A stretch of 64,000 nucleotides of DNA from Parasphingorhabdus sp. (GCA_048270065.1 JBLWTQ010000014.1:11921-75920), one strand, 5' to 3'; counted from the stretch's first letter, positions 60,231 to 64,000 are shown. Program-made: numbers and translations. Notes: generated by a model from the letters alone, not told the origin.

Positions 60231-60398
60231 GAACAAGTTGCTCCGAGAGAAGATAGGATGGGCTTCATTGAACAATTGACGGCAAATGCCCAGCAAAATT
60301 TGAGCCATGGACAGGCGGCAATGGCTATGGGCTGGCGGGTTTGAACGCGCAGCCAGTGATTGTAGGAGTGGAAGATCTGGTAGCAGCGGGATAGATAT

Positions 60399-60485
60399 TG
60401 TCGCGCCAGCGCAGGCTGGGGGCCAATCCGATCGACCGGGGGAGCCGTAGGTTGGGTTTGGGTGCCAGCCTGCGCTGGGATGACA
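60399..60485. repeat. 87-bp palindromic TGTC-tagged element upstream of glyQ
   Basis: Arms tgtcgcgccagcgcaggctgggggccaa / ttgggtgccagcctgcgctgggatgaca, each with an internal CCAGC-GCAG-GCTGG-type hairpin. Confidence 0.82.
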
Positions 60486-60582
60486 TTTTTATCCTGGCCG
60501 GAAGGAACTCCTCCCTTGACCCTCTGCCGCCCTTTCGCCAAAGCGGGCGGGAAATATTGCAGCCGCGAAGAAAGTCTTCCTC

Positions 60583-61455
60583 TTGTCCGATACGAAGCCG
60601 CTCAGCTTCCAGCAGATCATCCTGAAACTCCACAATTACTGGAGCGATCAGGGCTGCGTGATCCTGCAACCCTATGACATGGAAATGGGGGCCGGGACGT
60701 TCCACACCGCGACAACCCTGCGCGCGCTCGGTCCCGATCCGTGGAACGCCGCCTTCGTCCAGCCCTGCCGCCGTCCCACCGACGGCCGCTATGGCGAAAA
60801 TCCCAACCGTTTGCAGCATTATTACCAGTATCAGGTGGTGCTCAAGCCCTCGCCGCCGGATATCCAGCAACTCTATCTCGACAGTCTGGTGGCGATCGGC
60901 ATCGATCCGATGCTCCACGATATCCGCTTCGTCGAGGATGACTGGGAAAGTCCGACGCTCGGCGCCTGGGGGCTGGGCTGGGAAGTCTGGTGCGACGGCA
61001 TGGAGGTCACCCAGTTCACCTATTTCCAGCAGATGGGCGGCTTTGACTGCAAGCCGGTGGCCGGCGAGCTGACCTATGGGCTCGAACGGCTGGCCATGTA
61101 CATCCAGAATGTCGACAGCGTTTATGATCTGGATTTCAACGGCAATGGAGTGAGTTACGGCGATATCTTCATGGATAATGAGAAGCAGATGTCGGAGTGG
61201 AATTTCGAGGTCGCCGATACCGAAACCCTGTTCGACCTGTTCAACAAGGCGGTCGGCGAATGCGAGAACTGTCTTGACGCCAAGCTGCCGATCCCGGCCT
61301 ACGAGCAGGCGATCAAGGCGAGCCATGTCTTCAACCTGCTGCAGGCGCGCGGCGTGATTTCGGTCCAGGAACGCGCCAGCTACATGGGCCGCGTCCGCGA
61401 TCTCGCCAAGGGCAGCTGCGAGGCGCATATGGTCAAGAACGGATGGGCGGCGTGA
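60583..61455 (+). CDS. glyQ: Glycine--tRNA ligase alpha subunit
   Basis: [61 protein letters not shown]; TTG start. Confidence 0.97.
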
Positions 61456-61607
61456 AGGTTCTCGCAATATCTATTTCCTCCCCGTTGCGCAGCAATGGGG
61501 AGGTGGCGTCCGCCGTAGCCTTGGCGGAGGCGGATGACGGAGGGGCCCCTCCACCGCGCTGCGCGCGGTCCCCCTCCCCGTGCTGCGCACAGGGAGGAAA
61601 ATCATGA
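61452..61607 (+). CDS. 51-aa repeat-derived mini-ORF bridging glyQ and glyS
   Basis: GTG overlaps the glyQ stop (GTGA); open for 51 codons ([51 protein letters not shown]); TGA overlaps the glyS ATG (ATGA). Translation is not demonstrated. Confidence 0.4.
61476..61598. repeat. 123-bp composite palindromic element, copy 1 (glyQ-glyS spacer)
   Basis: Terminal IR tcctccccgt / acagggagga; central palindrome ggaggggcccctcc; near-identical reverse complement of 62533-62655. Confidence 0.92.
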
Positions 61608-64000
61608 CCGACTTCCTGCTTGAACTGCTGTCCGAAGAAATCCCCGCCCGCATGCAGGCGAAAGCGCGCGCCGACCTCGAGCGGCTGTTCACCGAACAAA
61701 TGGCCGAAGCGGGCCTGAAGGCCGGCCCTATCACCGTCTGGTCGACGCCAAGACGACTTGCGCTCATCGCCCGCGACCTACCGGCCGAGACCGAAGCGGT
61801 CAGCGAAGAAGCCAAGGGACCACCCGAAGGCGCGCCCGATCAGGCCGTCGACGGCTTCTGCCGCAAGAATGGCGTCACCCGCGACCAGCTCGAGGTACGT
61901 GACGTCAAGGGGCGCCCGACCTGGTTCGCGGTAATCGACAAGCCCGGCCGCGACACCAGGGATGTGCTGGCAGAAGCCATCCCGGCGATCATCCGCGCCT
62001 TCCCGTGGCCGAAGTCGATGCGCTGGGGTGACGCCAGTACATCGACCGAAAGCCTGCGCTGGGTGCGGCCGCTGAGCGGCATTGTCGCGATATTGGGCGA
62101 TGATCTGGTGCCATGCGAAATTGACGGGGTGGCGTCAGGCTACGAGACGGTCGGACATCGCTTTCATCACTCCGTTCGCCCTGAGCCTGTCGAAGGGCAG
62201 CATGGCAAAGATGCTTCGACAGGCTCAGCACGAACGGAACTGGGCGGAATCACCATCGGTAACGCCGGCGATTACGCCGAGAAACTGCGCGCCTGCCATG
62301 TGATTGTCGACCATGAAGAACGCCAGAATATCATCCGCGAGGGCGCTGCCAGGGCGGCGGCGGACGCCGGCCTGCAACTGGTCGAGGACGAAGGGCTGGT
62401 GATCGAGAATGCCGGCCTGACCGAATGGCCGGTGCCATTGCTCGGCAGCTTTGACCCGGCGTTTCTGGACGTCCCCGAAGAGGTGATCCAGCTGACCGCC
62501 CGGGTGAACCAGAAATATTTCGTGTGCAAATATCCTCCCTGTGCAGAGCACGGGGAGGGGGACCATCCGAAGGATGGTGGAGGGGCCCCTCCGTCATCCG
62601 CCTCCGCCAAGGCTACGGCGGACGCCACCTCCCCATCGCTGCGCGACAGGGAGGAAAAACTGGCCCCCTATTTCGTCTGCACGGCCAATATCGCCGCCAG
62701 CGACGGCGGCAAGGCGATCATCGCGGGGAATGAAAAGGTCCTCGCCGCAAGACTCTCCGACGCCAAATTCTTCTGGGAACTTGACCAGAAGACGCGATTG
62801 GAGGATCATGCAAAGAAATTGAGCAACATTGTGTTCCATGAAAAACTGGGCACGGTTGCCGACAAGGTAGAGCGTGTGGCCAAGTTGGCCGAGTGGCTGG
62901 TTTCTTTAGAAGGGAATGGTTTTTACCAGTCCAGCCCCGGCGATACATTTCATGGTGAAGTGTCCGAGGCCGCACGTCTCTGCAAAGCCGATCTCGTCAC
63001 CGAAATGGTCGGCGAGTTCCCAGAGCTGCAGGGCTTGATGGGCGGCTATTATGCAGAGAAAGAAGGAAAGTCCGCCGCGGTCGCCAACGCGATCCGCGAC
63101 CATTACAAGCCGGTCGGGCAGGGTGACGATGTGCCCACCGATCCGGTGACGGTGGCGGTGAGTCTGGCGGACAAGCTGGATACTATTGGATCGTTCTTCG
63201 CTATTAATGAAAAGCCGAGCGGTTCCCGTGATCCTTTTGCGCTTCGCAGGAGCGTTTTAGGCGTGATTGCGATTTTAGTGGCTAATGGACTGCGAGTGTC
63301 TCTCGTTCGTTCAAGTTTGCGAGTGATTATCCTGTTGAAGGAGCAGGAACTCCGTAACATTAAAGCAGATACAGTTGGGTGGAGAGAAGTTGATTCAGCA
63401 TACCAAAAAATTGATCAAATTTTGGACGAACCCGGAATATCAGTGGATAAAGAAGTAGAGTACGTTCTTGAAAATTGGGCCAAAAGCAAAGCTCCAAAAG
63501 GTTCGTCATTGGAAATGCCTTCGCCGGAAGATGACGATGATATGGATGCCTATTTGGATGGCGATATTCCCATGTCAGAAATGTCTCTTCCGGAAAGTGA
63601 CGAAGACACGGAAGCGTATTTCGATAACGTAATTTCGTTCTTCGTTGATCGCCTCAAAGTTCAACAACGTGAAGCGGGTGTCCGTCACGACCTGATCGAC
63701 GCGGTATTCGGTGATAAAGGCGAAGATGATCTGGTGCGGCTGCTCGCCCGGGTGAAGGCGCTGCAGGCCTTTGTCGCAACCCCGGACGGCGAGAATCTGC
63801 TCGCCGGTTACAAGCGGGCTTCGAATATTTTGAAGAAAGAGGGCGGCACCAGTGCCCCTGCGGAGGCAGGGGCCCATCTCCCGACCTCTGGTCCTGACGC
63901 ACCGGTCCGTGATGGACTCCTGCCTGCGCAGGAGAACAATGTCCTTTCCTACACGCCCGAAAAAGCCGAAAAGACCCTGATCGACGCGCTCGACGCCGCT
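61604..64000 (+). CDS. glyS: Glycine--tRNA ligase beta subunit (3'-truncated by window), with in-frame repeat insertions
   Basis: Manual translation is open to the window end: [116 protein letters not shown]; SD AGGGAGG. Confidence 0.96.
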   Translation, partial: MTDFLLELLSEEIPARMQAKARADLERLFTEQMAEAGLKAGPITVWSTPRRLALIARDLPAETEAVSEEAKGPPEGAPDQAVDGFCRKNGVTRDQLEVRDVKGRPTWFAVIDKPGRDTRDVLAEAIPAIIRAFPWPKSMRWGDASTSTESLRWVRPLSGIVAILGDDLVPCEIDGVASGYETVGHRFHHSVRPEPVEGQHGKDASTGSARTELGGITIGNAGDYAEKLRACHVIVDHEERQNIIREGAARAAADAGLQLVEDEGLVIENAGLTEWPVPLLGSFDPAFLDVPEEVIQLTARVNQKYFVCKYPPCAEHGEGDHPKDGGGAPPSSASAKATADATSPSLRDREEKLAPYFVCTANIAASDGGKAIIAGNEKVLAARLSDAKFFWELDQKTRLEDHAKKLSNIVFHEKLGTVADKVERVAKLAEWLVSLEGNGFYQSSPGDTFHGEVSEAARLCKADLVTEMVGEFPELQGLMGGYYAEKEGKSAAVANAIRDHYKPVGQGDDVPTDPVTVAVSLADKLDTIGSFFAINEKPSGSRDPFALRRSVLGVIAILVANGLRVSLVRSSLRVIILLKEQELRNIKADTVGWREVDSAYQKIDQILDEPGISVDKEVEYVLENWAKSKAPKGSSLEMPSPEDDDDMDAYLDGDIPMSEMSLPESDEDTEAYFDNVISFFVDRLKVQQREAGVRHDLIDAVFGDKGEDDLVRLLARVKALQAFVATPDGENLLAGYKRASNILKKEGGTSAPAEAGAHLPTSGPDAPVRDGLLPAQENNVLSYTPEKAEKTLIDALDAA
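62172..62237. repeat. 66-bp palindromic element inserted in frame in glyS
   Basis: 24-bp arms ccgttcgccctgagcctgtcgaag / cttcgacaggctcagcacgaacgg (22/24 complementary), 18-nt loop; 22 codons. Confidence 0.92.
62533..62655. repeat. 123-bp composite palindromic element, copy 2, in frame in glyS and inverted relative to copy 1
   Basis: Perfect 10-bp terminal IR tcctccctgt / acagggagga; 41 codons. Confidence 0.92.
63852..63937. repeat. 86-bp palindromic element, copy 3, in frame in glyS
   Basis: Aligns without gaps to 18856-18941 and 25251-25336; read through as SAPAEAGAHLPTSGPDAPVRDGLLPAQEN. Confidence 0.9.

Follow-up and report, generated by a model that had tools for sequence, protein, structure and literature searches.

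In Parasphingorhabdus sp., the operon genes glyQ and glyS, which encode the alpha and beta subunits of glycyl-tRNA synthetase (GlyRS), are separated by a strongly palindromic repeat. Ribosomes that finish glyQ are probably relayed across this insert to glyS by a mini-open reading frame (mini-ORF) of 51 codons that overlaps both genes, a reading that rests on sequence comparison among relatives. The junction lies in a stretch of 64,000 nucleotides (GCA_048270065.1, JBLWTQ010000014.1:11921-75920; hereafter the window). The bridging frame recurs in 59 of 60 assessable glyQ-glyS spacers, which together carry at least 12 repeat families, and it is the frame, not the element, that is conserved.

All features of the junction lie on the + strand. 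glyQ (60583-61455; 290 aa; ORF list; Pfam PF02091 tRNA-synt_2e, E 1e-144) ends in a TGA at 61453-61455. glyS (61604-64000; ORF list; Pfam tRNA_synt_2f, E 5e-173) begins with the ATG at 61604-61606, has the N-terminus MTDF and extends past the window end. The spacer of 148 nt between the two genes consists of an 18-nt leader (61456-61473), one copy of a repeat that we call family A (~61474-61600) and 3 nt before the glyS ATG. The leader, delimited by BLAST limits, spacer listings and alignment, lies outside the repeat family and is loosely similar across the genus. The mini-ORF (61452-61607; from the sequence, the ORF list and comparison with relatives) starts at a GTG (61452-61454) that overlaps the glyQ stop as GTGA (61452-61455), a -4 type overlap, and runs for 51 codons to a TGA (61605-61607) that overlaps the glyS start as ATGA (61604-61607). 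Both ends therefore have the form expected of coupled gene pairs, namely co-directional frames with a -4 NTGA or -1 TRATG overlap. An ATG at 61443, inside glyQ, shares the frame of the mini-ORF. An N-terminal extension of glyS from a GTG at 61580 was considered and ruled out, as all relatives begin M[AT]DF at the ATG.

The bridging frame in the genus and beyond

We compared glyQ-glyS junctions from 59 species of the genus, with homology as the guide to where glyQ stops and glyS starts. Twenty of these sites are empty: stop and start overlap directly as TAATG or TGATG, and glyS begins MADF. The remaining 39 are filled by spacers of 100-230 nt that belong to at least nine repeat types (A, A-reversed, B, C, D, E, F, G and H), including type B (CGTCATCCTGAAC...GTTCAGGATGACG), type C (CGTCACCCCAGCG...), type D (CCGTTAGTSSTGAGC...) and type E (CGTCATTGCGAGCG...). 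At every filled site (39/39), a frame that begins on the glyQ stop (RTG at -1, ATG at +2, or both) crosses the spacer to the glyS start; one of these spacers (L017) is partly N-masked and not fully assessable. The frame ends at +1 relative to the glyS ATG in 29 spacers (ATGA), at -2 in five (TAATG), at -3 in three (TAGATG) and at +5 in two (ATGACTGA).

Spacer length is 1 mod 3 in 34 of the 38 assessable genus spacers, and all four exceptions are compensated. Two of them (L003 and L052) are 2 mod 3 in length and have a TAG that abuts the glyS ATG. The other two (L034 and L067) are 0 mod 3, and glyS codon 2 is ACT instead of ACC, which places a TGA at +5 (again ATGACTGA). Within family A, alignment of the spacers reveals indels of 15, 3 and 3 nt, and the only 1-nt indel is that of the compensated L052. 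On a tree of glyQ and glyS the spacer type changes ~30 times, with filled and empty sites interleaved. The ancestral state appears to be the direct TAATG/TGATG overlap, as found in the 20 empty-site members of the genus.

Several further features of the genus spacers were observed. Empty-site species are nested in filled-site clades in six cases (L013, L021, L031, L022, L064 and L043), which implies either that the entire spacer was cleanly lost, restoring TAATGGCT, or that recombination has moved junction alleles from one species to another. TGA ends glyQ at 38 of 39 filled sites, and TAA does so at 16 of 20 empty ones; the second glyS codon is ACN (Thr) at 36 of the 39 filled sites and GCN (Ala) at 18 of the 20 empty ones. 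The filled allele would then descend from a junction of the -4 (RTGACC) type, or else selection favoured these changes because they create the overlapping start and stop. Spacers of types B, C, D and E (e.g. L010, L033, L035 and L061) represent four families of identical 112-nt length, and B-type spacers keep the family-A 3′ end (CAGGGAGGAAAATC). The equal lengths and the retained end suggest that the core was swapped inside an existing spacer and was not a fresh insertion.

The comparison was extended to 80 named alphaproteobacterial loci outside the genus, mostly from Sphingomonadales, of which 20 have a spacer of 103-603 nt and a reliably placed glyS start. Nineteen of these 20 spacers contain the same relay frame, which ends between -10 and +5 nt relative to the glyS start. 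The set includes named Sphingomonas, Sphingobium, Stakelama and Erythrobacter genomes as well as other Alphaproteobacteria, and its sole failure is a Roseiarcus metagenome-assembled genome (L146). Two spacer-bearing loci from other families of the order (L023 and L025) also conform. The initial annotation of this junction had asked whether a doubly overlapping open frame is kept in the spacers of relatives, and the overall count of 59 out of 60, across many unrelated repeat families, answers in its favour.

Two null models give the chance expectation. Dinucleotide shuffles of the spacer interior, with length kept, retain the relay in 45% of trials, and random deletions of 1-2 nt retain it in 10%. 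For the spacer of the window alone, 49% of dinucleotide shuffles keep the frame open; by itself this open frame is unsurprising, and it acquires significance only via the relatives. Counting ~25-45 independent spacer alleles, the more lenient null would be excluded by many orders of magnitude. An early stop occurs in none of the 59 conforming spacers, as opposed to 55% of shuffles, which favours delivery of ribosomes to the glyS start over the mere stopping of stray ribosomes.

Predicted fold and proposed relay

The spacer region has a predicted folding energy of -102 kcal/mol over 186 nt (z = -5.2), and none of 200 shuffles is as stable. A Shine-Dalgarno (SD)-like motif, AGGGAGGA (61591-61598), is located 5 nt upstream of the glyS ATG. 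In the predicted minimum-free-energy fold it pairs with UCCUCCC (61476-61482), an anti-SD-like 5′ arm of the repeat that was also found among the inverted repeats and lies inside the mini-ORF. The predicted unpaired probability of the SD window is 0.13. A paired glyS SD with its partner within the upstream ORF is the arrangement of a hairpin that sequesters a ribosome-binding site (RBS), as far as the model of the fold goes. The initial annotation had reported GTGA at 61452, 51 open codons, ATGA, the SD-like motif and its UCCUCCC partner at these same positions, and its proposal that the SD can be sequestered by the 5′ end of the element itself is borne out by the predicted fold.

The further proposal that the element supplies the glyS SD fares less well. 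The motif is present here but is not essential, as nothing resembling an SD precedes glyS in C-type spacers, the D-type spacer of L035, the B-type spacers of L018 and L048 and most empty-site species. Where relatives do have one, its window is predicted to be mostly paired. De novo initiation at glyS is unlikely because several spacer types have no SD and the existing SD windows are mostly paired; in this lineage, glyS seems to depend on re-initiation, and the SD is not conserved. A separate glyS promoter had been named as an observation that would count against a relay, and scanning the + strand for promoters and terminators gave no site resembling either, within the spacer or beside it. An Rfam scan of 60300-63000 left the element unmatched, and its sole match was a sub-threshold small RNA at 62172-62237.

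We propose that the ancestral glyQ-glyS junction was a stop/start overlap that coupled translation of the GlyRS subunits by termination-reinitiation, and that a palindromic repeat, here a gene-less derivative of a cassette encoding a DUF559 protein, landed in it. A ribosome ending glyQ at the TGA would re-initiate on the overlapping GTG and translate the 51-codon frame across the leader and the whole repeat. Its passage would unwind the hairpin that buries the glyS SD and AUG, after which it would terminate at the TGA of ATGA and re-initiate on the glyS ATG. Insertions, element swaps and indels would survive at the junction only if the frame stays open and ends on the glyS start. From the comparison of relatives we infer translation of the frame and a dependence of glyS output on it.

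The route from glyQ through the mini-ORF to glyS had been part of the initial annotation, and it agrees with both the comparative test and the lack of a separate promoter. The same annotation had the element co-opted, or domesticated, as a coupler, and this part is not supported. Since 20 species manage with the direct overlap, and one occupant of the site can replace another, with some 30 changes of state on the tree, we read the element as tolerated and not co-opted. Toleration had been offered there as the alternative, and it is the version that stands. The element would be translationally transparent, tolerated without being beneficial.

Several points weigh against the relay. GC-rich palindromes are poor in stops and openness alone is weak evidence, given that 45% of shuffles remain open; the weight falls on register and stop placement. 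The species are related and alleles may spread by recombination, and it is uncertain how many independent events there were. Some of the architecture may come about automatically when an element inserts, via duplication of NTGA and not via later selection on the host, and a relay in two serial steps would be expected to yield less glyS output than a direct overlap. Across the source genome, with crude gene calls, relay frames are only modestly enriched: they end close to the start of the next gene in 87 cases, versus 72 and 62 for the control frames, and with the same crude calls the excess is clear only for spacers of 100-200 nt (32 versus 15 and 15).

The frame might instead be kept because a long and highly structured gap, if left untranslated, would open the operon mRNA to RNase cleavage or to Rho-dependent termination; ribosomes would need only to cover the spacer, with glyS initiating independently. 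The spacer is indeed a very stable hairpin within an essential operon, and translation through the whole spacer is what is conserved. Coverage by ribosomes, however, does not require the stop to lie between -10 and +5 nt relative to the glyS ATG, where all but one of the 60 spacers have it. The four off-register spacers are rescued exactly, by stops abutting the ATG, and several spacer types offer no SD for independent initiation. We consider this explanation unlikely in place of the relay. An effect against polarity may well operate alongside relay coupling, but it leaves the exact stop placement unexplained.

Repeat families, DUF559 cassettes and other junctions

The family-A repeat is dispersed in the source genome (3.34 Mb, 57% GC), where BLAST returns 33 segments that correspond to ~15-20 diverged loci, nuoG-nuoH and sufC-sufD among them. 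It has the features of a MITE (miniature inverted-repeat transposable element): terminal inverted repeats (TTTCCTCCC...GGGAGGAAA), a length of ~125 nt, multiple diverged copies and no coding capacity. The glyQ-glyS spacer holds a single palindromic unit and no tandem array. Outside the window, at C10:111361-111838, family-A termini flank a 130-codon DUF559 ORF, with CTTTCCTCCCTGTTGCGGAGCAATGGGGAGG...GGAGGGGC as the 5′ half of the cassette and GCCCCTCCACC...CCCCCTCCCC...CACAGGGAGGA as the 3′ half. Because this cassette has both family-A ends around the DUF559 ORF, the spacer copy, in which repeat and BLAST analysis finds the 5′ and 3′ termini joined without the ORF, is a gene-less MITE-like derivative. 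A longer, gene-carrying element with the same ends thus exists, and the DUF559 protein may mobilise the family. DUF559 is not a known transposase; we take it to be a Vsr-like PD-(D/E)XK nuclease. The cassette gives this one repeat family a candidate autonomous partner.

The source genome contains four DUF559 (PF04480) ORFs, on C1, C2, C6 and C10, and both A-type ends are found on the C10 copy. At C2:139657-140198, likewise beyond the window, a DUF559 through-ORF of 179 codons connects sufB to sufC and extends from the GTGA of the sufB stop to a TAG abutting the sufC ATG; the DUF559 domain lies between GCCCCTCCCC..GGGGAGGGG repeats. Intact DUF559 cassettes also form through-ORFs at glyQ-glyS itself, in L070, Sphingomonas yunnanensis (L073), Sphingobium xenophagum (L095) and L101. 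These four spacers are 450-600 nt long, with frames of 151-199 codons (Pfam E 7e-30) and flanking CCTCCCC/GGGGAGG repeats. Their presence at one junction in four distant taxa suggests either a preferred target or repeated survival at this site.

Repeats are also inserted in frame within glyS. A D-type unit occupies 62172-62237 (..VRPEPVEGQHGKDASTGSARTELGG..), and a second family-A copy, in opposite orientation, occupies 62533-62655 on the - strand (..PPCAEHGEGDHPKDGGGAPP..; ORF list, repeat search and BLAST). Opposite glyQ, an antisense shadow ORF of 380 codons (60325-61467, - strand) is an artefact of composition.

Bridging frames are found at other junctions as well. We surveyed hisH-hisA-hisF in 30 genus members (L149-L178; C7:3444-5797 in the source genome), where the ancestral overlaps, ATGA at hisH-hisA and GTGA at hisA-hisF, are filled by repeats in most species. 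All 17 D-type insertions at hisH-hisA (94, 115 or 118 nt) keep the frame from ATG at -1 to TGA at +1. At hisA-hisF, 14 spacers have a relay from a -1 start (13 of 118 nt, and that of L176, 103 nt). A class of 96/105 nt has no relay from a -1 start and was considered as a set of counter-examples; this objection dissolved, as in all 14 members a GTG 5 nt before the hisA stop begins a stop-free frame that is open to ATGA. The hisA-hisF total is 28 of 29, with a 284-nt low-GC insert in L178 failing and L156 masked, although flexible start positions of this kind raise the chance expectation, and the strict -1/+2 rule was kept for glyQ-glyS. In the source genome, relay frames cross repeats at nuoB-nuoC, nuoG-nuoH (A reversed), nuoK-nuoL, sufC-sufD (56 codons over an A-type repeat) and sufD-sufS (32 codons over a B-type repeat), the nuo and suf genes having been identified by eye from translations.

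These junctions bear on a second alternative, in which the frame is a built-in property of the elements. The repeats would home to NTGA or TGATG overlaps, bringing a ready open frame and a duplicated NTGA, with little or no later selection by the host. Mycobacterial interspersed repetitive units (MIRUs), as they are outlined in PMC12548453 and PMC3184786, provide a published precedent. NTGA is present on both sides of the insert (GTGA..ATGA here; ATGA..ATGA in L037, L040, L045, L047 and at hisH-hisA), and for each family the reading frame recurs from junction to junction. The DUF559 cassettes that bridge glyQ-glyS in four taxa, and sufB-sufC in the source genome, as through-ORFs point the same way. 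The leaders and trailers, however, vary between loci and lie outside the repeats, and spacer lengths within a family vary only by threes or with compensation. Moreover, most repeat-bearing co-directional spacers of the source genome have no relay in the tested frames, and three of its four DUF559 copies (C1, C10 and C6) are not embedded as bridging through-ORFs. The relay appears to belong to coupled junctions, and insertion as such does not entail it. An origin of the frame in the elements alone is, in our judgement, improbable; it is compatible with a translation relay and differs only in the level at which selection acts.

Coincidence of composition is a much poorer explanation. It holds that the frame is open since the repeat is GC-rich and palindromic, that the overlaps arose by chance and that glyS uses its own SD. 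About half of the shuffles of the window spacer do keep the frame (the 49% given above), an RTG at -1 is nearly automatic after a GCR codon followed by TGA, and a strong SD stands 5 nt upstream of the glyS ATG. Yet the frame is kept in 59 of 60 spacers from at least 12 repeat families, against ~45% expected with length kept or ~10% after frameshifts. The 1 mod 3 lengths (34 of 38), with four compensated exceptions, are likewise at odds with chance, and the SD is missing from several spacer types and predicted to be paired here. On these comparative data coincidence can be regarded as very improbable and effectively refuted, and the different repeat families would exclude a single recently spread allele. 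A functional small protein, to which conservation of the frame might point, was rejected as next to impossible because the peptides are unrelated between spacer types (e.g. RHPELVSGP..KQVQDD and PLALSLSK..) and their lengths span 32 to 199 codons.

The relay at glyQ-glyS may be one case of a more general rule, which we put forward tentatively. In Sphingomonadales and other Alphaproteobacteria, DUF559 cassettes, gene-less palindromes and other repeats might repeatedly invade stop/start overlaps in operons that encode stoichiometric complexes (glyQS, nuo, suf and hisHAF) and persist only as translated bridge ORFs. If so, DUF559 would be a selfish gene that is expressed through host translational coupling and passes the ribosome on. 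Such a mode of life would set this nuclease-encoding mobile element apart from introns, inteins and free-standing homing-endonuclease genes. Annotation pipelines miss or misread bridging mini-ORFs of the kind described here, and DUF559 'genes' that start on the stop codon of a neighbour.

Comparison with known systems

Leader ORFs that unmask a sequestered RBS are found in tap/repA (IncFII plasmids), repY/repZ (ColIb-P9) and rpmI-rplT. The proposed relay resembles these systems in that a short upstream ORF, ending at the start codon, would open an SD hairpin and hand over the ribosome. They are, however, dedicated regulatory devices with conserved structure, whereas the structure at glyQ-glyS is that of whichever repeat occupies the site, and no regulatory input is apparent. 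An engineered analogue of leader-ORF unmasking is the 'bicistronic design' (PMC12548453). The relay would be a natural counterpart of such designs, which serve to free expression from the influence of mRNA structure.

In published experiments, coupling by termination-reinitiation is all but lost at gaps of ~20 nt, and genes for the subunits of heteromeric complexes are enriched in overlaps (PMC10666635, PMC6728339). As in the coupling described by Huber et al. (2019, PMC6728339; 2023, PMC10666635), both mini-ORF junctions are classical -4 overlaps and the flanking genes encode subunits of a heteromeric enzyme. The difference is that two couplings would act here in series, with an ORF for a non-coding peptide between them, in place of one direct overlap. 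The comparison supports the view that termination-reinitiation cannot bridge distance (PMC10666635), the workaround being a relay ORF with a meaningless peptide. The junction amounts to a natural experiment on coupling distance: of the dozens of apparently independent insertions, swaps and indels, hardly any results in a gap before glyS that would go untranslated.

Among palindromic repeats, the repetitive extragenic palindromic (REP) units of bacterial interspersed mosaic elements (BIMEs) measure 21-65 nt and are associated with a Y1 transposase gene (REP-associated tyrosine transposase, RAYT). The family-A unit is bigger and more complex than a REP. Its purine and pyrimidine runs, GGGGAGG/CCTCCCC, are suggestive of BoxC/PIT intrastrand-triplex repeats. 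Literature searches on coupling with REP or MITE elements, and on glyQ/glyS coupling, found nothing. Free-standing homing-endonuclease genes sit between essential phage genes. Family A is comparable to these in that it represents the ends of a DUF559 nuclease cassette, intact copies of which lie at glyQ-glyS elsewhere; the DUF559 cassettes differ in being known here from sequence alone. Rickettsia palindromic elements, and other repeats read in frame within genes (Ogata et al. 2000, as cited in PMC3184786), are palindromic repeats that survive in translated sequence, and the family-A copy inside glyS is exactly such a case. The spacer copy differs from them, as it is fused to neither protein and is read as a separate ORF in the third frame.

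MIRUs are the closest described case. In the accounts given in section 11 of PMC12548453 and in PMC3184786, they are dispersed repeats between operon genes, with an ORF that overlaps both neighbours and with tetranucleotide border repeats (Supply et al. 1997). According to these accounts, MIRUs probably insert at start codons and, owing to translational coupling, disturb expression little (PMC12548453, PMC3184786); the repeats described here may do likewise. In the architecture so described, both systems consist of dispersed 40-150 nt repeats between co-directional operon genes, and the ends of a small ORF overlap the upstream stop and the downstream start, here in 59 of the 60 spacers. The border repeats may have a counterpart in GTGA and ATGA, which are identical at three of four nucleotides here and fully identical (ATGA/ATGA) in the four species named above and at hisH-hisA; these tetranucleotides border the spacer, and not the repeat, with the 18-nt leader and a 3-nt trailer in between.

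As portrayed in the same accounts, MIRUs are actinobacterial units of 40-100 bp that form one family with its own ORF, often in tandem arrays (variable number tandem repeats, VNTR). The host described here is alphaproteobacterial, and the units are single and strongly palindromic; homology in sequence to MIRUs would not be expected. At least nine unrelated families, together with whole DUF559 genes, alternate at one junction, and the bridging frame includes a locus-specific leader and trailer. The relay would thereby extend the logic of MIRUs to strongly structured palindromic repeats in another phylum, and its interest lies in what appears to be an unusually strong comparative case at one essential junction, together with the link to DUF559. 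Judged by the described architecture, the glyQ-glyS relay repeat would work like a MIRU without being a member of the MIRU family.

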